Positions 4,106 to 31,940 of a DNA stretch of 32,000 nucleotides are shown piece by piece (the first letter of the stretch is position 1; every line of letters begins with the position of its first letter). The notes beneath the pieces were generated by a model. It was not told the origin of the DNA. It ran no database searches and worked only from the letters and a program-made list of their open reading frames with translations. Source of the DNA: Opitutia bacterium KCR 482 (GTDB lineage: Bacteria; Verrucomicrobiota; Verrucomicrobiia; Opitutales; Intestinicryptomonadaceae); contig CP149973.1 of assembly GCA_029269845.2 (NCBI GenBank), forward strand, positions 1,890,001-1,922,000. Reading direction: 5' to 3'. The position numbers and the translations under genes are program-made.

Positions 4106-5473
4106 TTATTCGTTTCTTATATAGATTCCCCAATTTGGTATATAATTTCCTGCTCCACTTAAAATGGTAAAGTTTTCATATTTAATCTCGTTGAAAAAAT
4201 TCTTCCATCGGCAGATGTTTGCAAAATCCGTTATCTCGCCTAAAACGACATGCACCTTGTTTGATCTGAAAAAGCTCTCTATATCGCTTGTGTCAGGATA
4301 TATAGGATTTAGAAATACAAAGTCTTTCGACTTCGCATTAAAGATATTTTTAATATTAATTTCGCCGGAAGCGATAATGGTTTTATAGCAAATTGCCGGA
4401 TTTGGCGATTCTCCGATTGATATTGCTAAGCTGTCATTCGTGTTTATGGCATCAATAAGCTCGATCCCGTACTTTCTTCCAAAAACTTTTTCATCTGGAG
4501 TGCAAATGAAAATATGGTAATCGTTCCCTTTCCCAATCTTAATCCCATCGTTATCAAATCTTAATCGCGTATCTCTTTGCAGTGAATATGAAAGTATAAA
4601 TAATCCAAGGGAAGAAAAGACGAATGACGCAAACATTATTATATAAAATTCTACATGTAAGAATCTAAGCTTATTTATCCATATTGAAATTGCGAAGAGG
4701 AGTAGCGGAAATATCCATAGCAACCAGAAGGTTGCGACGTTGCTAAATATTGAATTTGCGAAAAATGCCAACCAAAGCGAAAACGTAACTGCGCAAAGAA
4801 TACTCTTCTTGTATGAAAACGTAATGCAAAATACAAAACACCAAAATAAGATGTATAATAATTTTATTGCAACCCCATGGCGATTTAAAAATTCGAGGTG
4901 GGAATTTACCAATGTATTATATTCTTCATTTTCATACATACGTTGATACCATCTCATATAAATCTTTGCTGGCGTATCCGGGGGGTGAATGCCACTTGGC
5001 GCGTCTGTCAGCATTTTTAATCCTGCCGTATATAGGTCGTAGCGTACATTGGCTGAGGAACTTTCGAGGCGGAACATGCTGTCTATACGATTCGTAAAGT
5101 TTACTGAATTTGAATAGATTGCTCCAGTTAGTATTGCTATGCAACTGGCTGTAACTTTTAATGTTGAAAATTTTATTGGCGCAATGATTAGGAAAGTTGC
5201 AATGGCAATGGTAATGGATATCAACGACCCACGTGAATATGTTTGGATCAAGAAATAGCCCAAAATACAATTAGATAAAAGTACAATCCAAAAAGAAAAT
5301 TTGTTTCTTATCGAACATATCGCCCACGAAACAACCATGAGCAAAACAATGAATGCCGCAGTTTTGCTTATGCTGCCGGCTCCCAATCCGAACCAATCAA
5401 GCCTGTTGAGCGTTGCAGATGAAAGCATTCTGCCGGCCGACAATGGTTCAATGATATAACCGTAATAATTCAT
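4106..5473 (-). CDS. O-antigen ligase / Wzy_C-like polytopic membrane protein with an extra C-terminal soluble domain of about 150 aa
   Basis: The 455-aa ORF has many hydrophobic segments over residues 1-300. Motifs QTYSRGSLISITIAIA and NSHLEFLNRHGV resemble the conserved Wzy_C loop (SRG..., H.HN.yLe.l.e.G). It is the last gene of the minus-strand operon. Confidence 0.6.
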   Translation of the reverse strand: MNYYGYIIEPLSAGRMLSSATLNRLDWFGLGAGSISKTAAFIVLLMVVSWAICSIRNKFSFWIVLLSNCILGYFLIQTYSRGSLISITIAIATFLIIAPIKFSTLKVTASCIAILTGAIYSNSVNFTNRIDSMFRLESSSANVRYDLYTAGLKMLTDAPSGIHPPDTPAKIYMRWYQRMYENEEYNTLVNSHLEFLNRHGVAIKLLYILFWCFVFCITFSYKKSILCAVTFSLWLAFFANSIFSNVATFWLLWIFPLLLFAISIWINKLRFLHVEFYIIMFASFVFSSLGLFILSYSLQRDTRLRFDNDGIKIGKGNDYHIFICTPDEKVFGRKYGIELIDAINTNDSLAISIGESPNPAICYKTIIASGEINIKNIFNAKSKDFVFLNPIYPDTSDIESFFRSNKVHVVLGEITDFANICRWKNFFNEIKYENFTILSGAGNYIPNWGIYIRNE

Positions 5474-5480
5474 CTGATAA

Positions 5481-6119
5481 TTACTTCACAATTAGGTAAA
5501 CATTGGTTGTATATTCGAGGTTGGTTTCATTTTGTAGAAAAAATAATTTCAAAACATGCTTGCCTCTAGGACAATGAGTTAAAGGTGTGATTTCTATCGA
5601 ATCGGCTGTAGATATGCGATTTTTAACATCAAACAATTTGCTTCCTAAGTCAATTTTTGAAAGTTTGTAATTTTTTGATGTTTTTATTGAAAGTTCTTTT
5701 GTAGACGATTCTCCGAAATTCCAGATTAACACCTTTGGATATATGTTTGCTGGTGCTTCTATCACAAGATGCAAACTCAACTCGTATTTTGAATTTTTCT
5801 TTTCATCGGTAGTAAGAATAAAACTCTTTTCCTGCGCACCTTTTCTCTCTCCGATTGTAAATATACCGTTAATCTTGCCGTTTTCATTTGGTTGGTATTG
5901 CTTTTTATCTGAATGTAATTTCGTACAATCGCACGAAGAGGCAATATCGAGAATTTTAATAGCTGAGGTCGAGTTATTTGAGAAACAAAAAGTGAATGGA
6001 TATTCTTTGGCTTCACTTCTTATTTTGTCATTTATTTCCATGTTATCAAAGACCAACTCGGCAAATAGAAATTGCAATGTAGAAGCGGCGCTTATAATGA
6101 TAAAAAAACGACGAAACAT
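5481..6119 (-). CDS. Secreted DUF1573-like protein
   Basis: N-terminal signal peptide MFRRFFIIISAASTLQFLFA. The SSCDCT motif sits where the DUF1573 hallmark SCGCT would be. There is a 5-nt gap to the upstream gene. Confidence 0.6.
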   Translation of the reverse strand: MFRRFFIIISAASTLQFLFAELVFDNMEINDKIRSEAKEYPFTFCFSNNSTSAIKILDIASSCDCTKLHSDKKQYQPNENGKINGIFTIGERKGAQEKSFILTTDEKKNSKYELSLHLVIEAPANIYPKVLIWNFGESSTKELSIKTSKNYKLSKIDLGSKLFDVKNRISTADSIEITPLTHCPRGKHVLKLFFLQNETNLEYTTNVYLIVK

Positions 6120-6124
6120 TTTGC

Positions 6125-7141
6125 TTATTTTAATATGTAGTTTAAAGTAGTTGTTGCGGTGCTTTTGCTATCCTCGAAAGTAATGGTAAGGCTGGAACTC
6201 GAATTCTGGTTCGGATTCCCGTTGTACTTAACAAATAGTTCAAGTCCGTTGTCGAAATTCTTTCTGTCAAGAATCTTGAAATCATTATTTGAAATGGAAA
6301 TATTTTTTATTTTCTTCGATGAGCTGTCGTAATTTAGAATGATTGCGACACTATCTTGTTTTTGCGAGAAATAATACGAATCAAGCATAAATGAAGAATC
6401 CGGAAGTATTTCCCACGAGACGGGAATTGTCATTTCGTAATCTTTTTCGCCGTGTATTAACAGGTTTAAATTCTCGCTAAAATTGCCCTTATCGGAACTG
6501 TTTTTTGCTTCTATATCGACAGAAAAAGTCGTAAATCTGCTAACAGAATTGTCTGTGAATCTTACAAAACGTTTGTTTGTCTCGCGAATTTTGTATTTCA
6601 GATTTTCTGGATTATTAACAAGCTCAACGCTTGGAATTTGCTTTTCGGAAGTAGAGACATTTACAATTATTTGCGAATTCTTTTTTTGTGATTTGTAGAA
6701 TCTTCCGAGATTTATAGCGCTAGGTGAACACGAATAATAATTTCCGACCTCGGATATTAACTTTAATGCCAATGGCGAATTTTTTGCGGAACTTTCGATA
6801 ATTATATCGACCGATTTCCCCTTGAGGATTGATGCAGGATATTCAACATCGGCGACTAACTTTACGCTTGAAAACGGTTTGATTTCTTTTGGGCAATTAA
6901 CTTTTGTACAACCGCATGATGCAGTTATCATATTAAATTTTATAGTATTAAATCCGTAGTTTGAAAGTTTGAATTCTTTGGTGAACTTAATGTTTCCGTT
7001 ATTATTTCTTGGCAGCAATCGTTCTGTGCTTTTTATCGAGCTATCGATATAGAGTTTATTGTGAAGATAGAAAAAATATACAAAGGCCAAAACAGTTGCC
7101 GTAAAGAAAATTCCGAGAGCGAGCTTTATGTGAATTTTCAT
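6125..7141 (-). CDS. Membrane-anchored DUF1573 domain protein with additional beta-rich domains
   Basis: ASCGCTKV is the DUF1573 hallmark. The probable start is M15 (MKIHIKLALGIFFTATVLAFVYFF, an N-terminal anchor) at 7141, 1 nt after the upstream stop. The track ORF extends to 7183. Confidence 0.7.
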   Translation of the reverse strand: MKIHIKLALGIFFTATVLAFVYFFYLHNKLYIDSSIKSTERLLPRNNNGNIKFTKEFKLSNYGFNTIKFNMITASCGCTKVNCPKEIKPFSSVKLVADVEYPASILKGKSVDIIIESSAKNSPLALKLISEVGNYYSCSPSAINLGRFYKSQKKNSQIIVNVSTSEKQIPSVELVNNPENLKYKIRETNKRFVRFTDNSVSRFTTFSVDIEAKNSSDKGNFSENLNLLIHGEKDYEMTIPVSWEILPDSSFMLDSYYFSQKQDSVAIILNYDSSSKKIKNISISNNDFKILDRKNFDNGLELFVKYNGNPNQNSSSSLTITFEDSKSTATTTLNYILK

Positions 7142-7142
7142 T

Positions 7143-7754
7143 TTATTTAGAAATTTTATAAGTTGAACACTTCTTATATACAAGTAGCGATATTCCGCCC
7201 AAAATCATTATTACGGCGATAATATTTAACGGGGTTAACTTTGAGGGCGGTTTGAAGTTATCGCCGACCGCGATAAATATGATTTTATCGTTCGATGTCC
7301 AATCTGATTTCTTTAAGATTTTTGGGGGGAGAGGCGCATCTATGATTTGCACTCTGTTTTCGTCAATAACACGCGCAACGCTAAAGTGTCCAATATCGGA
7401 ATTCTTGGGAGGCAGCGTGTACATTATAAACAGACAATATGGGTTGTCGTATAATTGCGATGGACGCAGTTTTAGCGTATGATTTTTTATTTTGTGTTCA
7501 TTTAATACCCTCTCTATATCTGCTATACTCACTTTTGAAGTATATGTAGGCATCAATGCTCTATATATGTCAGAATATTTTAATCCAATATTATAGATTT
7601 TCTGTACGATATATACACAGTTTACACCGCAGAGGTTTGTTATCTCTCTGACTTCAATATATCTCGTATGTTCTCCCTCATTAATATTGTTAGCATATGA
7701 GAAATATGCAATACATATCCCGAATATAAATATGAAAAGTTCCAGTGACTTCAT
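7143..7754 (-). CDS. Stand-alone C39-like (papain-fold) cysteine peptidase domain protein with N-terminal signal and C-terminal TM anchor
   Basis: NLCGVNCVYIVQKIY carries the candidate catalytic Cys and GHFSVARVIDENRVQIIDAP the His/Asp, matching the C39 pattern (CG...; HfvVl....v.i.DP). The signal-like N-terminus is MKSLELFIFIFGICIAYFSYA and the C-terminal TM is LNIIAVIMILGGISLLVY. An ATGA overlap with the upstream gene lies at 7751-7754. Confidence 0.6.
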   Translation of the reverse strand: MKSLELFIFIFGICIAYFSYANNINEGEHTRYIEVREITNLCGVNCVYIVQKIYNIGLKYSDIYRALMPTYTSKVSIADIERVLNEHKIKNHTLKLRPSQLYDNPYCLFIMYTLPPKNSDIGHFSVARVIDENRVQIIDAPLPPKILKKSDWTSNDKIIFIAVGDNFKPPSKLTPLNIIAVIMILGGISLLVYKKCSTYKISK

Positions 7755-8767
7755 TTTTTGTGTTCTTTGATTTGTTCGCTGGCGTTAGTCATGTTATCAT
7801 CTAGTATTTCACTTATTATGTCTTCTTTCCGTTTTATTGACATCAAATCAGTTACAATGTAATTTTTTGAGTTTATTTCGTCTGTCAGATGGCAACCGTT
7901 CGGAAATACAACATTGAGCGTTTTATCAATGACTTTGTTAAAAATTATACTACTTTTATTTATTATAAATACCGATTTTTGGTTGAGCTTTTCGTTTTCA
8001 TCAAAAAACTCTACAACTATTCTCAAGGGAAAAAACATTGCGCCAATTCTTTCGTAATCGTAGAAGCTGATTCTCCTATCCAGTTTCATTTTCCCAAATT
8101 CTGTGTATGCACCATATCTTTCTATATGATCCAGCCTAAGGGTTTGTAAGTTGAAATAATATCCTAAATCTGGAAAATATAGATAACTTATTCCATCTTC
8201 GATTTTTACTTCATGTTTCAAATTTCTACATTCTTCAATTACATTTTTATAAAGCGCACTACATCCAGTGGCGTAATTGTAATCCATCCAAGCTAGAGTC
8301 ACTTCCGGCAACTTATGCAGACTATTTCTGATGTACCCCTGCGAAATATCTGCAAACTTAATATCTTTTAAGGCACCATACTCTACTTCTTTTTTTGAAT
8401 TCTCCGGAATTTCTTGTCCGGATCCATATATAGTTAACGAACGATATATACCATTATTGAACGATGTTTCTGTTTTCTCGTTAAAGATATATGTATTGCC
8501 GTTTTTCGCATATAAATACTTTGAACTGAAAAAAGAACTATTATTCATGATGTATTTAATTTCACCATAGGCTCTATAATTATATTCCTCGGCGGAATCC
8601 GCATAATTAGTTTCTTCTAAGTATTGTAATGATACAGAATTAAATGCTGGAACATTTTGCAATATTTTAAAAACCATCATGTTGCTTTCCGCAAAAATTC
8701 GTGATGACAGGAATATTAAAAATATTGTACTACATATGATTCTATTCATAATGAAAGCCCTATGCAT
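7751..8767 (-). CDS. Secreted hypothetical protein (338 aa), beta-rich; the C-terminus faintly resembles the LolA/RseB family
   Basis: Signal peptide MNRIICSTIFLIFLSSRIFA. The C-terminal segment IINKSSIIFNKVIDKTLNVVFPNGCHLTDE resembles the ...FN..ID...F.FP.G..V.D ending of LolA-like proteins (weak). The start abuts the upstream stop with a 0-nt gap. Confidence 0.5.
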   Translation of the reverse strand: MHRAFIMNRIICSTIFLIFLSSRIFAESNMMVFKILQNVPAFNSVSLQYLEETNYADSAEEYNYRAYGEIKYIMNNSSFFSSKYLYAKNGNTYIFNEKTETSFNNGIYRSLTIYGSGQEIPENSKKEVEYGALKDIKFADISQGYIRNSLHKLPEVTLAWMDYNYATGCSALYKNVIEECRNLKHEVKIEDGISYLYFPDLGYYFNLQTLRLDHIERYGAYTEFGKMKLDRRISFYDYERIGAMFFPLRIVVEFFDENEKLNQKSVFIINKSSIIFNKVIDKTLNVVFPNGCHLTDEINSKNYIVTDLMSIKRKEDIISEILDDNMTNASEQIKEHKK

Positions 8768-9232
8768 TTATTCTTGTTGTTCGGGTTTATCTTCGGGGCA
8801 ATCGGCAGTACCACTGCCTTTGCTGTATTTTATATAAGATTTTGAAACATTTGTTGTTGCCCAATATGGTGGTTTGTTTACCCCATTAGATTTCTTACAG
8901 GTATATTTTACACAATCACAACTTCCATTCGATACCTTATTTGCCGTTCTTCTTTTTGTAATTGGAGTTGTTTTCATATTGCTATAAGTTGCACATTCCG
9001 TATAATTATTACCAGCGTGACTATTTATTATGCATGGAGGTTTTGGGAGGTTGTTATTGTTAAAACTACTACAATGTGCATCACCAGTTGATGCCGGATC
9101 TGTTCCGCAATTTGTTAAGGCACCTCCGAAAAGATTTTCTCTGTCTATATTAGTGGAATGGATTCCATAACATAGTAATACACAACCAACAAACATCATT
9201 CCTGTTAGAATTGACAATGGTATTTTTTTCAT
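8768..9232 (-). CDS. Small Cys-rich secreted protein / putative lipoprotein (154 aa, 8 Cys in the mature part)
   Basis: MKKIPLSILTGMMFVGC is a signal with a lipobox-like VGC. Cys occur at 42, 54, 67, 80, 105, 107, 112 and 145. A Gly-Gly lies at 36-37 (ENLFGG/ALTNCG). Confidence 0.6.
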   Translation of the reverse strand: MKKIPLSILTGMMFVGCVLLCYGIHSTNIDRENLFGGALTNCGTDPASTGDAHCSSFNNNNLPKPPCIINSHAGNNYTECATYSNMKTTPITKRRTANKVSNGSCDCVKYTCKKSNGVNKPPYWATTNVSKSYIKYSKGSGTADCPEDKPEQQE

Positions 9233-9242
9233 ATTTAGCCTT

Positions 9243-10601
9243 TCATTTTATTATAGTTAGATTTTCATTGAATATTCTTGTTGTCGATTTTCCGTTTTTT
9301 ACTAAAGTGGCTTCAATTTCGCCGTTTTTTAAATATTTGAAAGTAGTCTTACTGCCGTCGGATTTTTCGTAGGAAGTTACCCTGTTTTGTTCGTCAAAAA
9401 CTCTCTTCCAGATGGGGTTCCAGTCACCGTCGTAATAGGTAATACTGTGTTCATTGTCGTTGCGTTTTACATTGAAAAGAATTTTGCCGTCCTTTATTTG
9501 GCGAATGATTCTACCTTTGTCATCGTACAAAAATAATTGTTCCTCTATCCTTCCGTCAGGATATTTTGTCTCTATTTTGCGCGGCTTGCCGTAGCAATTT
9601 GCGCTCATATTCTCGTAAATTTTTACAATATCTCCACCGTTTCTTTGGTTTACGGAAACGCCTTTGTCATTCCTATAAAAAATGTCTTCTTTCTTGTTGA
9701 AACTCGATTTTCGTTTTAGATATTTATACTTATCAATATTGGTTTTATTCGGAATTGTATATTCGTATGAGTCCGCAAGACGATTGTTTTTATAGGATTC
9801 TTCTTTTTTGATTAATCCGTTATTAGCTTCCCAAAAATATTTCTTCGTCTCGTCGTTTTGCGTTATCGATATCTCATTCACTCCGTTATTGGAGAATTTA
9901 TAAGAATATTCTTTAATGCGCTTGGCATTGGGAAAATCTACTTGTTCGGCAAGCAGTTTCCCGTATCCGGATACTTCCGATACTTTAAATCTTATCGTTC
10001 GCTTTTCTTTGGCGAAATCCATATATATTGTCCCGCGCTTGTCATATCTAAACAATACTATGGGTGTTCCCTTTGCATTTATCTGCTTGAGGTTTCCGCC
10101 TTCGTACTTAAAAAACAATGTCGTGCCGTTTGAATATTTTACCTGATCCAAAAAGTTCCTTTTGAAAATAAATATCACGCCACAGCTTCCGGTTACCGAA
10201 AATCCGTTCGGAATTTCCTCTAATATCCAATTCTTACTCTTTGTTTCAAAGAGTTTCTTGTTTTTGTAGCTTCTCTTTAAAATAATATTGTCGTTATCCG
10301 GCATTACAAATTTATACGAATCCCGGGTATCTTTCACGATATATGAATCGGTGAGCCCAAACCACCAACCGTAACCGAATATTTTAGAGGCGGTTTTTCT
10401 ATTGCTGTTAAAATTTAGCGATAAATCTATCTGATTTTCTCCGTCGATGTCAATATATCCAAGCCTCTCGGTAATATCGACTTCGCCCATTGCGTTTATC
10501 CCGTCAAAGGCTATCACATTGGAAGGCGACCAAGAAACACCGCATGCGATAACCCACAAGTGTGAAAAGATGAAAAATGTTGCAAAGTATAATGCTTTCA
10601 T
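9243..10601 (-). CDS. Secreted YD/RHS-repeat-like protein
   Basis: The probable start MKALYFATFFIFSHLWVIACG is at 10601, an ATGA overlap with the rhodanese stop. The C-terminal half has YD-type repeats (LFLYDDKGRIIRQ, ITYYDGDWNPIWKRVFDEQNRVTSYEKSDGSKTTFKY). The track ORF extends to 10703. Confidence 0.55.
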   Translation of the reverse strand: MKALYFATFFIFSHLWVIACGVSWSPSNVIAFDGINAMGEVDITERLGYIDIDGENQIDLSLNFNSNRKTASKIFGYGWWFGLTDSYIVKDTRDSYKFVMPDNDNIILKRSYKNKKLFETKSKNWILEEIPNGFSVTGSCGVIFIFKRNFLDQVKYSNGTTLFFKYEGGNLKQINAKGTPIVLFRYDKRGTIYMDFAKEKRTIRFKVSEVSGYGKLLAEQVDFPNAKRIKEYSYKFSNNGVNEISITQNDETKKYFWEANNGLIKKEESYKNNRLADSYEYTIPNKTNIDKYKYLKRKSSFNKKEDIFYRNDKGVSVNQRNGGDIVKIYENMSANCYGKPRKIETKYPDGRIEEQLFLYDDKGRIIRQIKDGKILFNVKRNDNEHSITYYDGDWNPIWKRVFDEQNRVTSYEKSDGSKTTFKYLKNGEIEATLVKNGKSTTRIFNENLTIIK

Positions 10602-11008
10602 TTTTGCCGCTCCTTCCACTCTTTCCAGCCGCCTTTGTAAATCATGATATTGGCTAATCCAATAATTGACAATTTTCGCCCAAGGTTGGTTGAGTCGTCG
10701 CAATCATAGTCCGTGCAATACACGACTATGCGCTTATATTTTTTCAGATCGCATTCATTATTTATTTTTTTTAATGAAACTTCAAAATCTATTAGCGGAA
10801 GGTTTTTTGCATTTGGGATATGTCCCAATTCGTAAAAAACCGAAGGTCTGGCGTCTATTATTATGGTATCAGATAGAACAATATATTCTTTTAACTCGTC
10901 AAAATCGATTTGACAGAATCCAATACTTAGATTTTCAGAATATGCGTAAGGCGCGCAAGCCAAAAGTATTTGGCTTACAAACGATGAAATTTTCAAATAG
11001 CTTCTCAT
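10598..11008 (-). CDS. Secreted rhodanese-like domain protein with a CX4C active-site loop
   Basis: IIIDARPSVFYELGHIPNAKNLPL, then VVYCTDYDCDDSTNLGRKL, then IYKGGWKEWK give the rhodanese fold order. It has a signal peptide and is the first gene of the minus-strand operon. Confidence 0.75.
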   Translation of the reverse strand: MRSYLKISSFVSQILLACAPYAYSENLSIGFCQIDFDELKEYIVLSDTIIIDARPSVFYELGHIPNAKNLPLIDFEVSLKKINNECDLKKYKRIVVYCTDYDCDDSTNLGRKLSIIGLANIMIYKGGWKEWKERQK

Positions 11009-11101
11009 TTATCGTTTGATATTTTCTTAAAAAAATTTACTTATTTAAAAAAGTCAAGATTTTTCTTGAAATAAAATAATAGATATTTATGGATATAAAC
11101 T
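11009..11101. promoter_or_regulatory. 93-bp AT-rich divergent intergenic region; presumed promoters of the two rhodanese-containing operons
   Basis: It is the only non-coding gap between the divergent gene strings 4106-11008 (-) and 11102-16104 (+). No consensus promoter hexamers were confidently identified. Confidence 0.35.
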
Positions 11102-11920
11102 ATGCTAAAGGAAATGGTGCATTTAATTGTCGCAATCTTTCTTGCGCAAGTTGTTGTATTTGGCGAAAATACATACAATATTTCCAGCTTGCCGGTTCGC
11201 GGATATGAGACTGCGGTTCTTGTACTTGCTCCGGGTATAAATGCGGAAGGAAATTTCTTTTTGGAGGAACAATGCTGGACGGATTTCGCAAAAAAAAATA
11301 ATTTGGGCATGATCGCGCTAAGCTACAAAACCCTCGTAAATGAAACAGATTCCGGGCAGAATGAGTGGTATTATTATCCGAATTCAGGTTCGGGGCAAGC
11401 CCTTTTGGATTCGATACGCAAAGTTTACGGAAAAGATTTGCCGATTATATTATACGGATTTTCTGGTGGGGCGCAATTTGTTAGTCGATTTGTTGATTGG
11501 TGTCCGGACAGAATTATCGCGTGGTGCGCTTATTCGGCGCAATTTTGGGATTATCCCCAAGACGGCAGAAAACTAACAAAAGCTCGTGGAATAGTCGCCT
11601 GCGGCGATCAGGACGGGCTTCGTTGGCAACCTAGTTTCTCTTTTTATTATAAGGGTAGGATGGAAAATCGTCCATGGATTTGGATTTCGGTTCCAAACAC
11701 TGGGCATGTTAGAAATCCAAAATTGGAAGAATTTGTGCGTAGTTTCTTCATTGAAGAGCTGGGAATATGGCACAATAGAATAAATCCTCAGGATGATATT
11801 TTAGCTGATATATCAACAAAAAATATTATATATGACGCTCGGGATTCTAATATAGCGTTAAAATGCCAATTCCGTAATTTTAAGCTTTTAGAGCAATGGA
11901 AGGAGATCCAAAGGCCGTGA
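11102..11920 (+). CDS. Secreted alpha/beta-hydrolase fold esterase (GFSGG nucleophile elbow)
   Basis: Signal-like N-terminus, the GxSxG motif YGFSGGAQFVSRF, and later CGDQDG and TGHV as candidate Asp/His. It is a paralog of the next gene. Confidence 0.6.
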   Translation: MLKEMVHLIVAIFLAQVVVFGENTYNISSLPVRGYETAVLVLAPGINAEGNFFLEEQCWTDFAKKNNLGMIALSYKTLVNETDSGQNEWYYYPNSGSGQALLDSIRKVYGKDLPIILYGFSGGAQFVSRFVDWCPDRIIAWCAYSAQFWDYPQDGRKLTKARGIVACGDQDGLRWQPSFSFYYKGRMENRPWIWISVPNTGHVRNPKLEEFVRSFFIEELGIWHNRINPQDDILADISTKNIIYDARDSNIALKCQFRNFKLLEQWKEIQRP

Positions 11921-12969
11921 AAATATTAAAATTGTTCATCTTGGGGATTTTCATGATAGTAAATTCATACGGGCAGATATCTCTTCAAGAAAAAGACAGA
12001 ATATTTTTGTATTCGTTTTCTACGGATAAAAATACCCAACAAGCAAAAGCTGATCCGTCCAAAAGGAATAAACTCGATGAAATCGTGTACGTTCTAAGAA
12101 TGCCTAAGACTTGGACGCGAGAGAATGAAATGCTCTCGCGTAAAAGCAAAATACCGAGTGTTCGAGGAGTTATTTGTATTTGTACATGGATGAAAACTGC
12201 CGCCGATTTAAAAGATAAAATCGCAACATATGAAAGTAGTTCCTTTAAGCATATTATACAGTTTGCCGACGAAAATAATCTGGCGCTTCTGACTTGGTCT
12301 AATTTTGGAGGGTACGAAATTTCAAGTAGTGTTGACGAAATGAACAAGACTCAAGTTCAGCGTTATAATGCGATTTTTGAAAATCGATTGCTTGAATGGG
12401 AACGAGGCTATAAACGGGTGTTGTTCAAATACAATCTGCCAAAAGATTCGGCGCTTATTTACGGGTTTAGTGGAGGGGGACAAATCGCGCACCGAATAGC
12501 TCTGCGGCGGCCCCAGTATTTCTCGGGGATACATATCCATGTAAACTCGAGTTACGATGTTCCAACTTCAAACGCAAAAAATATGGTTTGGTTGGTAACT
12601 ACGGGCGAGCTTGAATACGGATATAAGGCTGCGACTCGTTTTTATAAAAATATGATTGATATGGGTTATTCTGTGATTTTTAAAGCTGGAGAAAATTTAG
12701 GGCACGCAACAAATGCCCAAATTAACGCTCTATCTTTGGAGTTTTTCAAATATATGATAACATTTATACCAGATCCCACAAACCCGAATTGGAAAACTCC
12801 GCCTGTGGATAAATTTTATTTAATGCGTCATCCGATATATGTAGGGGATTATTTGAATAATGTTGCATATCCGATTGAGAATGCAGTTAAACACGTTTCA
12901 GCCCGTAAATATATGGTCGCTCTTCCTACAAAGTCTATAGCCACTGCTTGGGGAAATATTATAGAATAG
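11917..12969 (+). CDS. Secreted alpha/beta-hydrolase fold esterase, paralog of 11102..11920
   Basis: YGFSGGGQIAHRIA (GxSxG). The likely start is GTG 11917 (VKILKLFILGIFMIVNSYGQ signal peptide), overlapping the upstream TGA as GTGA. The track ORF starts at 11896. Confidence 0.6.
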   Translation: MKILKLFILGIFMIVNSYGQISLQEKDRIFLYSFSTDKNTQQAKADPSKRNKLDEIVYVLRMPKTWTRENEMLSRKSKIPSVRGVICICTWMKTAADLKDKIATYESSSFKHIIQFADENNLALLTWSNFGGYEISSSVDEMNKTQVQRYNAIFENRLLEWERGYKRVLFKYNLPKDSALIYGFSGGGQIAHRIALRRPQYFSGIHIHVNSSYDVPTSNAKNMVWLVTTGELEYGYKAATRFYKNMIDMGYSVIFKAGENLGHATNAQINALSLEFFKYMITFIPDPTNPNWKTPPVDKFYLMRHPIYVGDYLNNVAYPIENAVKHVSARKYMVALPTKSIATAWGNIIE

Positions 12970-13385
12970 AAATTGTGAATATAAAACATATCATATTTGT
13001 CCTATCTGCAAGTGGATTACTTGCTATCGCAAACTTTTGGCTAAATCCGAACGCGCCGGATTTGTCGCTAAACTCGGACGAGATTACGCTTTCGCAAATA
13101 AACCGTCTGCCTAAAAATCTCGTCATCGTCGATGCGCGCAAGTCGCAGGATTTCAAGAAGGGGCATGTCGAAAACGCGGTAAATCTTTCCGAAGAAAAGT
13201 TTGATGCCCAACTCGGAAAATTTCTGGATATTTGGACCCCCGATGCGACGGTTCGCGTATATTGCGATTTCGGACGGTGTAATTCCAGCAGGGCAATTGC
13301 CGACAAACTGCGGCACGAATGCCAAATAGAAAATGTGTTTGTGCTCAAAGACGATTGGACAAAATGGAAAAATACAAACAAATAG
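12948..13385 (+). CDS. Membrane-anchored rhodanese-like domain protein with a CX4C loop
   Basis: VIVDARKSQDFKKGHVENAVNL, then VYCDFGRCNSSRAIADKL, then VLKDDWTKWK. The start is ambiguous between TTG 12948 and GTG 12975 (MNIKHIIFVLSASGLLAIANF anchor). Confidence 0.7.
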   Translation: MGKYYRIEIVNIKHIIFVLSASGLLAIANFWLNPNAPDLSLNSDEITLSQINRLPKNLVIVDARKSQDFKKGHVENAVNLSEEKFDAQLGKFLDIWTPDATVRVYCDFGRCNSSRAIADKLRHECQIENVFVLKDDWTKWKNTNK

Positions 13386-13792
13386 TATTGTGTAGTGCAC
13401 GCGTGATTTTGGCCGGAGTTTTTGCCTACGCCGCCGTTTCGAAAATTCTGCGTCCGGACGAATTCTATATCGCGGTAATGAACTATCAAATTTTGCCGAA
13501 ATATTTGGCGTATGCGGTCGCATATTTCCTGCCGGCGCTGGAGCTTATTTGCGCCGTTGCGCTTTTGTCGAAAGCCGTATTTAAGGCTTCCGCATACATA
13601 ATTTGCCTTATGCTTTCGGCCTTTATAGCTGCGCTACTTTTGTCATGGCTTCGCGGCTTGAACATATCGTGCGGTTGTTTCGGCGGGGAGGATTCGACCG
13701 GCGGATATCTCGGAATAATCGTACGCGATATTGTTTTGCTCGGATTATGCGGCATTATATTCTTGATAAATCCCAATAGAAATTTAAATTAA
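13364..13792 (+). CDS. MauE/DoxX-family redox-associated membrane protein
   Basis: About 4 hydrophobic helices and the family-typical CGCFG motif (NISCGCFGG). ATG 13364 overlaps the 3' end of the rhodanese gene. Confidence 0.7.
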   Translation: MEKYKQIVLCSARVILAGVFAYAAVSKILRPDEFYIAVMNYQILPKYLAYAVAYFLPALELICAVALLSKAVFKASAYIICLMLSAFIAALLLSWLRGLNISCGCFGGEDSTGGYLGIIVRDIVLLGLCGIIFLINPNRNLN

Positions 13793-13795
13793 CCG

Positions 13796-14185
13796 ATGTT
13801 TATGAAAGACAGGCGTCCGATTGTAGTTGCGGTATTGATCCCCCTTGTTTCGGTGTTCATTGCCGGCGGGTTAATATACTCGGTAAAATCAAAATCTTCA
13901 AAAAACGGCGACAGGACAAGTCTGCCCATTGAGGCATACACCGGGTATCCGAAATCGTTTTCCGGAAATGAATATGCGCTTACGGCTTCGGTAGACAGCC
14001 AGCTTGCCTATTCCGAAGGCAGGGGCAGGATAATTTTATTAAAGACATTTTCGAATAATAGCATGCCCCTGTTTGTTCCCGCCGAAGTAAAGGGGTTCAA
14101 TCCGAACGTCGGGCAACGATACGATTTCCGGGTACGCATAGACGGAGACGGAAAATTGGTGATGACAAATTTTAGAAAGCTTTAA
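13796..14185 (+). CDS. Small N-terminally anchored envelope protein, unknown function
   Basis: The 129-aa ORF has the TM segment PIVVAVLIPLVSVFIAGGLIY. It lies 3 nt after the mauE-like stop and 2 nt before the next ORF. Confidence 0.55.
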   Translation: MFMKDRRPIVVAVLIPLVSVFIAGGLIYSVKSKSSKNGDRTSLPIEAYTGYPKSFSGNEYALTASVDSQLAYSEGRGRIILLKTFSNNSMPLFVPAEVKGFNPNVGQRYDFRVRIDGDGKLVMTNFRKL

Positions 14186-14187
14186 TC

Positions 14188-16104
14188 ATGGATAAAATCA
14201 CGGTGTATCTTCTGCTTTTCTCGGCTTCTGTGTCGCTTGCGCAGGAACTTCCAAAGGTTTCGCCTCAAACACCGCCGATAAATTCCGCATCGAACGAAGT
14301 TCAATCTCCGAGCTCCTCTCCCGCCTCTTCCGGAGCGACTCCGCACAATGCGCATTCGCAGGAGACGCAAAGTCCGGGGGCATTGCCGCTGAACCTCGGC
14401 GGACTGACGCAAGTCGACAACAATGCATTGTTGTCCGTTCTCGGCAATCAAAACAACCTTGTCGATATGTCCGGAAAGAAAATCGACGATGTCCAACAGA
14501 AACTTGTTCGTGCACGGTTCGAAAAATATCTCAATTCCCCTCCGTCAACGTCAAGGGAGGACCTGTCCTACAACCAGCTTCTCGTCGACATAAGCCAACG
14601 GTTGGCGGGGAAGGGCGGAGGCAGCGATTCCGAAAGAACGCTCGACGCGTGGCGCTTGCTTTTCAAAGCAGAAGATTATCCGATGGACGACCAGCTTTGT
14701 AGAACGATAGCGGACAAGGTGGTGAATTTCTGGCAGACAACCCGCAAAATCGAGAAATTGGCGATTCAAAACGAGGCGTTGGAAAAGGACAGAGCCAGGA
14801 AGGAGTCGGGAATGCGCAATATTGCAAGCATGGATCGTCAGGAATTCATACAAATGATGCGCGGCAAGGACGCCACGCCGCCGCCGACACGCGACTACGA
14901 ACTTGACCCGATCAAAAAGCGTCTGCAGGAAACCGAGGCGAAACTTCGGGAGAATAAATCCTACGAGGCCGCTTCGCGCGTAAATCAAAAACTGGATTTT
15001 CAAAGTCTGATTGTGCAGTTTTTCCTCCAGCGCAGATATTACCACGCAATGATAGCAAACGATTTTTACCGTTATTTGTTTGCGGCCGAAGACGGGAAAA
15101 TAGAAGGCATAGACTCCTTGAAGGGGCAGGTTTTCGGAGGTGTCGACATAAAACTTACGACCTCGACGATAGATGCGCTTTGCAAAGAGGCGATAAACGA
15201 TACGGACAATGCCGTGAAAGCCGCCGAATACCTGATATCGAGGGGCGAAATACATTCCGCGACGCAACGAATGCTCGAGGCGTTTTTTCTGGGCGAAAAT
15301 CTCGCGTCCGTAAAGACATTCCCGATGGATTCAAAACGCGAAATTATGCGCTACCTTCGCGATACCGACAAGCTCATAAACGCCGTAAAAGTGAAACACG
15401 TCGAGCGCGCGGAGGAGATATTGAAAGAAATACAAAGTTATGTGAAGGACTTTGATTCGGGGCAAATAGAGGCGTTTATCCAGACGTCGAGGCAACTCAG
15501 CGATTTGGCGTTGCAAAAAGCGCTTGTCGCCGCGCAGACGCGAAACCAGCCTGCGGTCGAAACCGCGCTGCAGGACGCCGTCAATTTTTGGCCTACGAAT
15601 CCCAAGATTCAGGAATTTCTGAAAACGATGATAGGAAAGGTCGATTTAAAGGATGTCGCCGTGACCGATTTTGACAGGCTTTATGCCCAAAAGGATTTCC
15701 GCGGAATTTTCAACGACAGATTCCGTTTTGCGGCCGCCTTGGCTACGGATTCCAGTAGAAACAAAACATTTCTCGAAATAATGAAACGCATGGAAATTAT
15801 TGAAACTTCGATCGGGCAGGCGAAGGAACTTTCCCGACTCAAGAACAATTTTGCGGCGTGGGAAATCGTAGAAAAGGCGCATAGACAATTTCCCGAAGAC
15901 AGCGAACTAAACCGCATACGCGCCGACCTTACAATAAGGGTTTCGGCATTCGCGGCCGCGATGGCAAAGGCGGAGGAAGCGCTTGAGTCCGGCGATAAAT
16001 GGACCGCTTTACTCGCATATCTGAAGGCGAAAGACATTTATCCTATGTCCTCGATCGCCGATTCCGAAATTCCCAAATTGGCCAATCAAATTCTCGACAA
16101 ATAA
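14188..16104 (+). CDS. Secreted alpha-helical protein of unknown function (638 aa) with an S/P-rich linker
   Basis: Signal peptide MDKITVYLLLFSASVSLAQE, then a low-complexity S/P/Q stretch, then a long region with helical-type composition. The antisense ORFs are Arg-rich junk. Confidence 0.7.
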   Translation: MDKITVYLLLFSASVSLAQELPKVSPQTPPINSASNEVQSPSSSPASSGATPHNAHSQETQSPGALPLNLGGLTQVDNNALLSVLGNQNNLVDMSGKKIDDVQQKLVRARFEKYLNSPPSTSREDLSYNQLLVDISQRLAGKGGGSDSERTLDAWRLLFKAEDYPMDDQLCRTIADKVVNFWQTTRKIEKLAIQNEALEKDRARKESGMRNIASMDRQEFIQMMRGKDATPPPTRDYELDPIKKRLQETEAKLRENKSYEAASRVNQKLDFQSLIVQFFLQRRYYHAMIANDFYRYLFAAEDGKIEGIDSLKGQVFGGVDIKLTTSTIDALCKEAINDTDNAVKAAEYLISRGEIHSATQRMLEAFFLGENLASVKTFPMDSKREIMRYLRDTDKLINAVKVKHVERAEEILKEIQSYVKDFDSGQIEAFIQTSRQLSDLALQKALVAAQTRNQPAVETALQDAVNFWPTNPKIQEFLKTMIGKVDLKDVAVTDFDRLYAQKDFRGIFNDRFRFAAALATDSSRNKTFLEIMKRMEIIETSIGQAKELSRLKNNFAAWEIVEKAHRQFPEDSELNRIRADLTIRVSAFAAAMAKAEEALESGDKWTALLAYLKAKDIYPMSSIADSEIPKLANQILDK

Positions 16105-16247: not shown

Positions 16248-16976
16248 ATGACTCTTTTTATTGACGTTGAGAACAAGAAGCTTGTCCAGAGTTTGACTTC
16301 CGACAGGAGCGTGTCCGCGCCCGTATTTATGCAGGGCGACAACGAGCCGCTCGAAATCTTCCTTTTGCAAAAGGGCGGAGAATCGCTCTACGAAGTAAAG
16401 CCGCTTGTTGTCGGCACGGACTTCCTTCGGGTTGCGATTGCGCGTTTCAAAGGCTATCCGAAATCCCTCACCTACGCGGCAGGCTACGCGTTGAATCCGA
16501 ACGGCGGTGCGGAAGTATTGTTGCCTCTAAACACAACGGCAATCGAAAACGCCGTTCAGGAGAGCGAATATATCACCGCATTCTTGGAGGTGGAATATTC
16601 CGACACGGCGGGCAGAATCGTTACGATTTTGCAGACCGCCTGCCGCGTAAAAAACGACCTCATCGAAAACGCGCCCGCCGTCGAACTTCAGGAGCAGTTC
16701 TACGACAAAGTTTACACCGACACCGTGTTCTCGAAAAAATCCGCCAATCTTTCGGATTTGGCGGACAAGTCGGCTTCATGGAAGAACCTCGATGTCTATG
16801 CAAAAGGCGAAGTTTACAACAAATCGCAAATCGACGCGCAGGAGGCAAAGAACCTCAAAAAGGCTTCCAATCTTGCAGACGTTGCCGACAAGTCCGTAGC
16901 CCGCGCAAATCTCGACGTTCCGCAGAAGCGCGACCTGTTCAAATATATGAAGTGCGGAATCTGGTCTGACACCTGA
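16248..16976 (+). CDS. Phage tail-fibre-like protein, probably an N-terminal fragment
   Basis: Two copies of the tail-fibre collar motif: SANLSDLADKSASWKNLDV and ASNLADVADKSVARANLDV (SNLSDL....AR.NLG-type). Too short for a complete fibre. Confidence 0.5.
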   Translation: MTLFIDVENKKLVQSLTSDRSVSAPVFMQGDNEPLEIFLLQKGGESLYEVKPLVVGTDFLRVAIARFKGYPKSLTYAAGYALNPNGGAEVLLPLNTTAIENAVQESEYITAFLEVEYSDTAGRIVTILQTACRVKNDLIENAPAVELQEQFYDKVYTDTVFSKKSANLSDLADKSASWKNLDVYAKGEVYNKSQIDAQEAKNLKKASNLADVADKSVARANLDVPQKRDLFKYMKCGIWSDT

Positions 16977-17423
16977 TTGTCAGTTCCCTCGGAATACGGC
17001 GCAACGCTCGGCGACGACTTCGTGGCTGGAAATTGCTCGACATTCCTTACAATCTACCTGCCCGAACCTACCGCCTATTACACGCAACTCTACGCCGTTT
17101 CATACGCAGATAGCGGAATGTTCACGCCCGAAATTTCCGCAGACGGCAGGACGCTAAAACTCGGCTACATCTATCAGGAAAGCGAAAGCGGCGGAATTGA
17201 AACTGTCGAGAAAACGGCGGCGATTTCAAAGGCGATAGAATACGGCGACAGAATCGCGCTAACCGTCGACGGCAGGAATTTCAAGCTATACAAGGGCATT
17301 GAACTTGTTTCCTCTGGTACGATTTACGGAGGGAGGAAATCCGGCATTCTGAGGCATTGGAAATCTGCCGGAAACGAACCGAAATGCTCGGGAAAAAATG
17401 TTCGAAGTCGGAAGCGGAGTTGA
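16977..17423 (+). CDS. Hypothetical (phage-derived?) protein; the 3' end probably runs into recombinase-remnant DNA
   Basis: TTG start directly after the upstream TGA. The last 30 or so codons are basic junk and overlap the recombinase fragment frame. Confidence 0.35.
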   Translation: MSVPSEYGATLGDDFVAGNCSTFLTIYLPEPTAYYTQLYAVSYADSGMFTPEISADGRTLKLGYIYQESESGGIETVEKTAAISKAIEYGDRIALTVDGRNFKLYKGIELVSSGTIYGGRKSGILRHWKSAGNEPKCSGKNVRSRKRS

Positions 17424-18170: not shown

Positions 18171-18248
18171 TGGGGTGGCAAACGCGACTTGAACGCGCGA
18201 CCCTCGGAACCACAATCCGATGCTCTAACCAACTGAGCTACTGCCACC
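18171..18248 (-). tRNA. tRNA-His (anticodon GTG) with encoded G-1 and CCA
   Basis: The reverse complement is G-GTGGCAG-TA-GCTCAGTTGGTTAGAGC-A-TCGGA-TTGTGGT-TCCGA-GGGTC-GCGCG-TTCAAGT-CGCGT-TTGCCAC-C-CCA. It folds as a full cloverleaf, has the His-specific extra 5' G, and closely resembles E. coli tRNA-His. Confidence 0.95.
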
Positions 18249-31347: not shown

Positions 31348-31940
31348 TATGGATTTTTATTTAAACGTGATAGGACAAGCTCTGCCTGCCGTTTTAAAAA
31401 TGCGGTGTCGCTTTCGTTGAAAAGCACGATGTCGGCGAGTTTTGACTTTTGTTCGGGCGGCATTTGGAATGCGTCGCGCCGCGCTATTTGTTCGTCCGAC
31501 ATTCCCCTGTTCGACAGGCGGAATTTCCGCAGTGGTTCGCTACAAAAAACAGTAATGCAGAAATCGAATTTCTTTTCAAGTTTTTTCTCGAAAAGTAGCG
31601 GCACTTCCACCACCGCGATTTTCCCGTCGGGTAGTTTTTCCGCCGCCGCCCGCCATTCCCTTTCGATTGCGGGGTGTATTGCGCGTTCGATTTTCGCGAG
31701 CTTTGCGGCGTCGGAAAAAACCGCCTTTGCAATTTCCGCGCGGTTCGGTTTGCCGTCGGCTCCGTATGCGCGTTCGCCGACCGCGCGTTTGACCGCCGCG
31801 ACCACTTCGGGGTTGTTTTCGAGAGCGGCGTGCGCGAGTTTGTCGGCGTCGAGCACTTTCGCCCCGAGTTCGGCGAAAGCCTGCGCCGCCGCCGATTTCC
31901 CGCAGCCCATTCCGCCCGTCAATGCTATTGTAGTTGCCAT
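31347..31940 (-). CDS. coaE: Dephospho-CoA kinase
   Basis: [16 protein letters not shown] (P-loop at the N-terminus as in CoaE), [18 protein letters not shown]. The likely start is ATG 31940; the track ORF starts at 31982. The TAA stop overlaps the rho ATG (TAATG). Confidence 0.85.

Follow-up and report, generated by a model that had tools for sequence, protein, structure and literature searches.

A conserved envelope gene cluster of the verrucomicrobial isolate KCR 482 encodes a predicted periplasmic C39 peptidase, a putative MauE redox module and a hypervariable candidate double-glycine protein

We analysed a 32,000-nucleotide stretch of the genome of Opitutia bacterium KCR 482, a member of the Verrucomicrobiota (the whole stretch is referred to here as the window). 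The analysis centred on an operon of eight genes on the minus strand (4106-11008) and a divergent six-gene operon on the plus strand (11102-16104), which travels with it in related lineages. The cluster consists of real, conserved and uncharacterised envelope genes of gut Verrucomicrobia. We tentatively propose, with somewhat less than even confidence, that it serves a polymorphic secreted protein that would be exported through the Sec pathway, cleaved after a double-glycine (GG) motif by a C39 peptidase resembling FapD, and folded by a dedicated oxidative module, in company with a partner protein that varies along with it. The parts belong to known families, and double-glycine/C39 maturation of a polymorphic secreted protein is itself of a known kind; a description of the combination seen here was not found, in line with an earlier note on this DNA that had not recognised it as a named system. 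The earlier note missed the divergent operon, the hypervariable cassette and the FapD precedent.

The most informative feature of the locus is a hypervariable, recombining cassette. In two strains of a related species, L007 and L016, the DNA is 97-99% identical over a 16-gene region except for ~1.65 kb (L007 8546-10192) that cannot be aligned. This divergent stretch comprises a gene for a small cysteine-rich protein, a gene for a protein of ~300-350 amino acids (aa) and the first ~64 codons of the C39 gene. Transferred to the window, the approximate limits of the cassette are 7563-9273 (-), covering the small Cys-rich gene, the 332-aa gene and the C39 gene up to codon ~64-70. No fewer than four allele sets occupy the related-species frame, with protein lengths of 140/299/205, 170/337/221, 153/351/213 and 143/291/201 aa. 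Residues 1-70 of C39 fall into discrete classes, with identities of either 100% or about 25-40%; from residue 71 onwards, identity is 60-95%. Judged from these alignments, the cassettes are exchanged by recombination, since the same N-terminal part of C39 occurs on different C-terminal backbones (N-part/C-part identities of 100/83% for the window protein and P0003, 100/86% for P0005 and P0011, and 26/87% for P0005 and the window protein). The protein encoded next to the cassette, a YD-repeat lipoprotein, is 98.7% identical between strains whose cassettes cannot be aligned. By analogy with bacteriocin/immunity, pilin/accessory and toxin/immunity cassettes, we read this pattern as the signature of diversifying selection.

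The small gene of the cassette (8768-9232, -) encodes a Cys-rich precursor of 154 aa, in which the sequence NLFGG at residues 33-37 is followed by about 117 aa with eight Cys residues and an acidic tail. The small proteins of this type have a hydrophobic N-terminal segment, a [LMI][FY]GG motif 8-14 residues further on, and then ~100-130 aa with about eight Cys and an acidic tail. Between allele classes, they are only 20-35% identical or cannot be detected by BLAST. The [LMI][FY]GG motif is nevertheless kept in 8/8 homologues, which otherwise range from undetectable to about 50% identical, and because it persists in such barely alignable sequences we regard the 154-aa protein as a candidate double-glycine substrate of the C39 peptidase. 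Within the eight-gene operon, a conserved N-terminal GG is confined to this protein. A protease acting on a co-encoded Cys-rich protein had been suggested before, and the conserved GG now points to this protein as the candidate. A Pfam search with the 154-aa sequence gave no match. Its earlier label as a lipoprotein is doubtful, and we rejected it, because the lipobox is not conserved in the homologues. NCBI annotates the gene in KCR 482, and it is left uncalled in six metagenome records of the same species (L001-L006).

The peptidase (7143-7754, -) is a C39-like cysteine peptidase of 203 aa with a signal peptide and a C-terminal transmembrane (TM) segment that ends in a Lys-rich (KK) tail. 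It matches Pfam Peptidase_C39 (PF03412) with 34 bits against a cutoff of 22. Residues C42, H123 and D139 are invariant among 17 homologues, with a spacing of Cys-81-His-16-Asp; the catalytic residues of ComA (Cys17/His96/Asp112) are similarly spaced. A profile search of PDB sequences found no C39 chain, and we therefore place the window protein, on its sequence, as a distant member of the family. The signal peptide and the C-terminal TM segment with its KK tail predict a periplasmic orientation of the catalytic domain. The protein is neither a domain nor a partner of an ATP-binding cassette (ABC) exporter, being a stand-alone enzyme with its own signal peptide and anchor, and no ABC transporter lies within about 10 kb of it in the window or in the other loci examined. 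Its family is narrow, as is that of the YD protein (27 and 18 clusters, respectively, with all members at least 41-48% identical). A search of genome contigs with the C39 profile retrieved a single species representative, a metagenome-assembled genome (MAG) of the Opitutales, and the exact window sequence is indexed in 799 blocks of a public assembly collection.

A precedent for such an enzyme is FapD of the Pseudomonas Fap amyloid system, a Sec-exported periplasmic C39 peptidase that needs its catalytic Cys (PMC5557850). Both are stand-alone C39 proteins with a Sec signal, encoded in an operon for envelope proteins, and FapD is thought to cut at GG/GA in co-encoded Sec substrates (PMC5557850). 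The window C39, which we compared with FapD by description, differs in its C-terminal membrane anchor, its allelic N-terminal part and its links to a redox module, a YD lipoprotein and a WaaL-like protein. No Fap component (the FapF barrel or the FapB/C/E amyloid subunits) was found among the locus products with Pfam and NCBIfam, and no Q/N-rich amyloid repeats were present.

The locus also resembles the C39-ABC double-glycine systems (ComA, CvaB, LagD) in having a GG before the putative mature product, a C39 triad, and a polymorphic product gene with a linked partner. Dedicated disulfide machinery is part of some double-glycine loci, and bacteroidetocin loci include a thiol oxidoreductase. 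Unlike these systems, however, the window has no ABC transporter, its peptidase is predicted to be periplasmic and not cytoplasmic, its precursor has a Sec-type hydrophobic segment, and its product would be a protein of ~100-130 aa with eight Cys instead of a short peptide. We therefore rejected a classical bacteriocin exporter built on a peptidase-containing ABC transporter, since the transporter is missing. An O-antigen or exopolysaccharide locus was likewise rejected, since there are no glycosyltransferase, flippase or exporter genes; Pfam scans of the window proteins found no glycosyltransferase, flippase or ABC transporter inside or adjoining the cluster. The earlier note had argued against both locus types, and these results bear it out.

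The second protein of the cassette (7751-8749, -) is a secreted protein of 332 aa, or 338 aa if read from an upstream ATG, with a variable N-terminal part and a conserved C-terminal FPxGCxVxD...KEDII region. Its alleles are 23-33% identical within one species frame. No Pfam or PDB match was obtained, even with profiles of 5 and 10 sequences; a word-indexed search retrieved two homologues, and an AlphaFold 2 (AF2) model built on a three-sequence alignment was unusable, with a predicted local distance difference test (pLDDT) score of 31.7. The C-terminal motif (FPxGxxVxD) may be LolA-like. Homologues of the protein flank a YD gene and a Wzy_C gene (53% identical to that of the window) in L014, and follow a YD gene in L024. 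Because of these positions the family appears to be tied to the YD and Wzy_C proteins as well as to the cassette, which argues, weakly since both contigs are truncated, that the 332-aa protein is not simply an immunity protein.

The evidence for oxidative maturation comes from a group of proteins with paired cysteines. The first gene of the eight-gene operon (10598-11008, -) encodes a secreted rhodanese-domain protein of 136 aa (Pfam Rhodanese, 63 bits) with a CX4C motif in the active-site loop (YCTDYDCDDS), and its stop codon overlaps the next start (ATGA). A second rhodanese, of 145 aa and membrane-anchored (12948-13385, +; 58 bits), carries CX4C as well (YCDFGRCNSS). The fold matches of both are strong, and the loops, which in rhodanese sulfurtransferases are of the CxxGxR type with a catalytic Cys, are CX4C variants here (CTDYDC and CDFGRC); all NCBIfam rhodanese subfamilies scored below their cutoffs. 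CX4C is kept in all seven A- and B-type homologues, and by both rhodaneses in all lineages. The operon also encodes two DUF1573 proteins, a membrane-anchored protein of 338 aa with an N-terminal TM segment, an ASCGCT motif and further C-terminal domains (6125-7141, -; 28.7 bits), and a secreted protein of 212 aa with SSCDCT (5481-6119, -; 52.1 bits). Both exceed the Pfam cutoff for DUF1573 (PF07610) of 26.1 bits, and the 338-aa protein also matches the HYDIN/VesB Ig-like family in Pfam. SCxC is conserved in the DUF1573 homologues (four homologues in the case of the 212-aa protein), and a PDB sequence search with DUF1573 gave no useful matches. DUF1573 is among the selenoprotein families in which UGC is found at the CxC motif (PMC9312934), and such forms argue, by analogy, for redox chemistry at this motif. 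The proposal that the rhodanese and DUF1573 motifs supply thiol chemistry is thus consistent with the conservation of CX4C and SCxC, and with a neighbouring MauE protein.

The gene for this MauE (13364-13792, +; Pfam MauE PF07291, 97 bits) belongs to the divergent operon. Its open reading frame (ORF) opens at 13319, and the homologues start at MEK (13364). MauE homologues can replace DsbB in E. coli, and their activity requires a periplasmic CXC between TM3 and TM4, usually CGC followed by F-G (preprint, bioRxiv 10.64898/2026.03.05.709764). The same preprint describes MauE as helping the Cys-rich small subunit of methylamine dehydrogenase to mature (bioRxiv 10.64898/2026.03.05.709764). The window protein matches the MauE model and has four predicted TM segments, with SCGCFGG at residues 117-123 between the third and fourth (90-108 and 132-150), and it carries the CXC-FG that the preprint describes. 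The MauE gene overlaps the gene for the second rhodanese in three lineages (window, L007 and L013), and no paper on a MauE-rhodanese pairing was found in the literature searched. As in the MauE/MauD pathway, a four-TM MauE with CGC-FG is encoded beside a small multi-disulfide periplasmic protein that is presumably folded with its help; in the window, however, the partners are a CX4C rhodanese and SCxC DUF1573 proteins, and not a thioredoxin-fold MauD or DsbA. No thioredoxin-fold partner is encoded at the locus.

Gene order is conserved well beyond the species. The core order rhodanese, YD, small Cys-rich, ~330-aa and C39 occurs in four lineages at 41-70% identity, and the cluster genes are found together in at least four lineages. 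In a related species (L007-L009, L016, L021, L022 and L025), whose proteins are 50-75% identical to those of the window, all genes lie on one strand. The first half of this array is DUF1573, hydrolase, hydrolase, Wzy_C, rhodanese, MauE, 125-aa and 637-aa, and the second half is rhodanese, YD, small, ~300-350-aa, C39, DUF1573, DUF1573 and Wzy_C. L013, whose YD protein is 41% identical, is the most distant relative and has an apparent single co-directional array of rhodanese, YD, small, 331-aa, C39, DUF1573-like, hydrolase, hydrolase, Wzy_C, rhodanese, MauE, 125-aa and 635-aa; its Wzy_C gene (10854-12182) was split or missed by the public gene call and is intact by tblastn. The Opitutales MAG L010 carries the five-gene core by itself (rhodanese, YD, small, 330-aa and C39), and the about 4.4 kb that follow it on this one contig contain neither a Wzy_C nor a DUF1573 gene. 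Since synteny holds in at least four lineages, we rejected a chance mosaic: the genes form a system, and the co-occurrence on which the earlier proposal depended is seen. Among the strains of the species itself, one (L006 4176-8512) carries part of the YD gene twice (residues 166-452), and the two copies enclose an inserted 316-aa gene and an additional DUF1573 gene of 219 aa. A scan of viral contigs for neighbourhoods of the Wzy_C family found nothing.

One related locus, L025, carries a second, divergent module at 1-2342, composed of genes for a YD protein of 517 aa, a Cys-rich protein of 149 aa, a protein of 333 aa and a C39-like protein of 175 aa. The leader of the 149-aa Cys-rich protein is ELTNYEMSVIKGG, which we take to read like the textbook double-glycine consensus. 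The 175-aa protein aligned to the C39 profile with an hhalign probability of 90.5% and with Cys, His and Asp in register; the 333-aa protein gave an hhalign probability of 0.3% against the 332-aa family, which is not significant. The module lies directly upstream of the DUF1573-hydrolase-hydrolase-Wzy_C-rhodanese-MauE genes, and the related species therefore has two tandem paralogous systems.

Taken together, the ~14 genes at about 4106-16104 could form an envelope system that would mature a small, strain-variable, disulfide-rich secreted protein. The 154-aa precursor would enter the Sec pathway by way of its N-terminal hydrophobic segment. The periplasm-facing C39 (Cys42/His123/Asp139) would then cut after [LMI][FY]GG and free the ~117-aa domain with its eight Cys, a step that we infer from the conservation of the motif, gene linkage and the FapD precedent. 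MauE, with its CGCFG, would act as a DsbB-like, quinone-linked oxidant in making the disulfides, and the CX4C rhodaneses and SCxC DUF1573 proteins would stand in for a thioredoxin-fold DsbA as the thiol-disulfide carriers of the periplasm. Diversification of the ~330-aa periplasmic protein goes hand in hand with that of the small protein, which it therefore probably binds, as a cognate immunity protein or carrier. A recombining allelic cassette is typical of diversifying or frequency-dependent selection, so the product would most likely be a strain-specific competition factor (bacteriocin-like) or a variable surface or secreted antigen. The YD lipoprotein, the two hydrolases and the WaaL-like enzyme would come into play later, acting on the envelope in display, release or linkage to glycans. 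Among these steps, only MauE-family activity and periplasmic C39 activity (FapD, PMC5557850) have an experimental precedent.

Several points weigh against this proposal. We have inferred the cleavage site and the topology as well as the redox relay. The B-type leaders are not canonical, having an aromatic residue at -3 and a Sec-like hydrophobic region upstream, and the oxyanion Gln typical of C39 is not conserved among the 17 homologues. MauE could belong to the general disulfide pathway of the organism and be merely linked to the locus. No outer-membrane exporter is evident at the locus, so that 'secreted' may mean periplasmic or surface-retained. Five conserved components, namely the YD protein, the two hydrolases, the Wzy_C protein and the 638-aa protein of the divergent operon, have no firmly assigned step in it. 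Finally, the 332-aa homologues of L014 and L024 have no small gene or C39 on the visible stretch, a weak point given that these contigs are incomplete.

The last gene of the eight-gene operon (4106-5473, -) brings in a different set of possibilities. It encodes a WaaL-like Wzy_C membrane protein of 455 aa with 8 predicted TM segments and a C-terminal domain of ~160 aa. The Pfam match to Wzy_C is marginal (34.2 bits against a cutoff of 31.7), and the paralogue Wzy449 scores 63.8 bits. A total of 548 representatives share this full-length architecture, Cerasicoccus among them. The only PDB profile match of the family was WaaL (7tpg), to whose R191 and R265 the invariant R81 and R144 align; H192 is near-invariant and may correspond to the WaaL His. 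Hydropathy and K/R counts across the family predict a periplasmic position for the large loop and the C-terminal domain. The protein is thus like WaaL and PglL/PilO in its Wzy_C domain, in the residues aligned to R191/R265 and in a conserved His in the large loop. It differs from WaaL (7tpg) in lacking the first ~150 residues, in having 8 instead of 12 TM segments and in its extra C-terminal domain, and from WaaL and PglL/PilO in having no lipopolysaccharide (LPS)-core, O-antigen or pilin gene context. Pfam scans found no LPS or O-antigen genes near it in the window.

On a reading that builds on the earlier note, a WaaL/PglL-like enzyme could work together with C39 in surface attachment, processing the YD or Cys-rich protein and anchoring or glycosylating it covalently. 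The residues shared with WaaL and the predicted periplasmic position of the extra domain fit this possibility, as do the spread of the Wzy_C family in Opitutia (Cerasicoccus, for example) and the Wzy_C paralogues that adjoin YD genes, 330-aa homologues and hydrolases (in L014, downstream in L001, and in the A module of L007). However, genes for an acceptor or a glycan donor are missing from the surroundings, the YD protein is conserved and not polymorphic, and the five-gene core of L010 has no Wzy_C or DUF1573 within about 4.4 kb downstream. Moreover, the acyl-enzyme of a C39 peptidase would hold the leader and not the mature domain, so that no sortase-like action on the product is to be expected. 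We consider this explanation unlikely.

Elements of both proposals could be combined in a new sorting pathway of diderm Verrucomicrobiota, which we hold to be rather less probable again. Here C39 would be a private signal peptidase that frees a Sec-exported precursor from its signal-anchor at GG, and MauE, the rhodaneses (CX4C) and the DUF1573 proteins (CxC) would form an oxidising relay with disulfide carriers other than thioredoxins. The ~330-aa and YD proteins would hand the product over to the WaaL-like ligase and the esterases for covalent surface display or release, and the cassette would set strain identity.

The two secreted alpha/beta-hydrolase-like proteins of 272 and 357 aa (11102-12969, +) open the divergent operon. 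Both have GFSGG, in which GxSxG was read directly, and their genes are syntenic in L007-type loci and in L013. Around the nucleophile they show a weak NCBIfam match to esterases of the polyhydroxyalkanoate-depolymerase type, and a PDB sequence search with the 357-aa protein gave no useful matches. In two paralogous modules, the hydrolase gene and the Wzy_C gene share 1 nt. This coupling would suit a glycan or LPS remodelling island, in which a WaaL-like ligase and secreted esterases modify a polysaccharide and the redox proteins, C39 and the small proteins are accessory or mere passengers. Low GC content and strain variability are typical of surface-glycan loci, and glycosyltransferases lie downstream in one relative (L018). 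Against this, glycosyltransferase, flippase and exporter genes are absent from the cluster and its borders in the window and in most relatives, the hypervariability resides in protein genes and not in glycan enzymes, and the tight, conserved linkage of rhodanese, YD, small, 330-aa and C39 genes would go unexplained. We judge such an island improbable.

The YD-repeat lipoprotein of 452 aa (9243-10601, -) scores 16.4 bits against Pfam RHS_repeat, below the cutoff of 22. Its AF2 model (pLDDT 82) matches Rhs cores of type VI secretion systems and teneurin YD shells (Foldseek against the PDB, E 1e-13), and since the TM-score to the full shells is 0.35 we describe it as a partial YD beta-sheet. A lipobox is present in 12/15 homologues, and none has DPxG. 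The protein thus shares the sheet of YD-repeat beta-hairpins with the Rhs/teneurin shells and differs from them in being a partial sheet on a lipoprotein, with no plug, aspartyl autoprotease motif or toxin domain, and in not being polymorphic. The YD protein as an Rhs toxin was rejected, because it has no toxin domain or autoprotease motif (PxxxxDPxGL) and does not vary between strains. The explanation that finds least favour is accordingly an Rhs-type polymorphic toxin locus, with the YD protein as toxin carrier and the small Cys-rich or 330-aa protein as immunity protein: despite the match to Rhs cores and the genuine mini-Rhs toxins at a neighbouring variable site in other strains, the 452-aa protein is too short for a closed shell and has neither toxin domain nor DPxGL, it is 98.7% identical between strains with unalignable cassettes, and the small protein has an export leader, unlike an immunity protein.

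The divergent operon ends with genes for a membrane-anchored protein of 129 aa and a secreted helical protein of 638 aa (13796-16104, +), which are syntenic after MauE in three lineages and gave no family matches in Pfam or NCBIfam. In the 638-aa protein (14188-16104, +), the signal peptide is followed by a variable linker rich in P/S/T/Q and then by L-x-[LM]-GG. This motif is kept in three lineages, at the start of the conserved domain, and may be a second GG processing site.

The layout of the eight co-directional ORFs at 4106-11008 was confirmed as the earlier note had given it, with ATGA overlaps at 10598-10601 and 7751-7754 and gaps of 10, 0, 1, 5 and 7 nt; the gap of 0 nt becomes 18 nt with the ATG start called in public records. 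The domain calls for Wzy_C, both DUF1573 proteins, Peptidase_C39 and Rhodanese all lie above the Pfam cutoffs, and that for the YD protein stands by Foldseek, RHS_repeat being below its cutoff. The claim that every product has a signal peptide, lipobox or TM segment held in large part: a hydropathy scan found N-terminal hydrophobic or TM segments in 7/8 products, and the 136-aa rhodanese, below the threshold of the scan, was assigned a signal peptide by reading the sequence; the lipobox of the 154-aa protein did not stand. The genome of KCR 482 is complete (2.30 Mb), and the window proteins are identical to its entries, where the operon proteins are named O-antigen ligase family, DUF1573, rhodanese-like and hypothetical. 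A literature search found no paper on KCR 482.

The GC content across the locus is 32-37%, against about 60% beyond 18 kb. A tRNA-His gene (18171-18247, -) marks the exact point where GC rises from 48% or less to about 60%, which gives the left ~18 kb of the window the look of a genomic island flanked by a tRNA gene. Scans of the AT-rich locus for promoters, terminators and repeats were uninformative, and no repeats of the invertible-promoter type were found. Within the species, the window from 3682 to about 16150 is a conserved block (97-98%), which reaches 17754 in some strains. Its flanks vary between strains, with AbiE and a methylase fragment in the window and mini-Rhs toxins or restriction-modification genes in other strains. 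At the variable site downstream of the Wzy_C gene, the window has a cut-down C5 DNA methylase fragment (216-695, -) and an AbiEi-like (DUF6577)/AbiEii toxin-antitoxin pair (736-2527, +). In L001 (14420-19623) and L005 (14411-15955) we found mini-Rhs polymorphic toxins of 498 aa (RHS_repeat and Tlde1) or 514 aa, with a common N-terminal part and different C-termini; in L001 the toxin is followed by a putative immunity lipoprotein of 179 aa, an alpha/beta-hydrolase of 618 aa and a third Wzy_C paralogue (449 aa). On the other side of the block, two ORFs of 242 and 148 aa at 16248-17423 (+), which only some strains have, encode proteins without signal peptides, and repeats of the motif SNLxDLADKS...NLDV in the 242-aa ORF recall phage tail fibres. 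Further along the window, the gene for transcription terminator Rho (28627-31347, -) encodes 906 aa. It coincides with an AT skew that is strong over 30000-31500, falling as low as -0.55, and suggests that Rho has a long N-terminal insertion of biased composition.

To our knowledge, hardly any work has been done on gut Verrucomicrobia besides Akkermansia, and how they compete with or are told apart from one another is poorly understood. Since KCR 482 is a cultured isolate, these ideas are directly testable. If our proposal is right, a MauE module with rhodanese and DUF1573 partners would extend the newly reported MauE pathway and would give DUF1573 a function. The C39 protein would join FapD as the second natural C39 peptidase of the periplasm and, unlike FapD so far, would come with obvious candidates for its substrate and cleavage site. 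The strain-variable secreted protein, whose alleles appear to recombine between backbones, is a candidate bacteriocin or identity marker of these bacteria.

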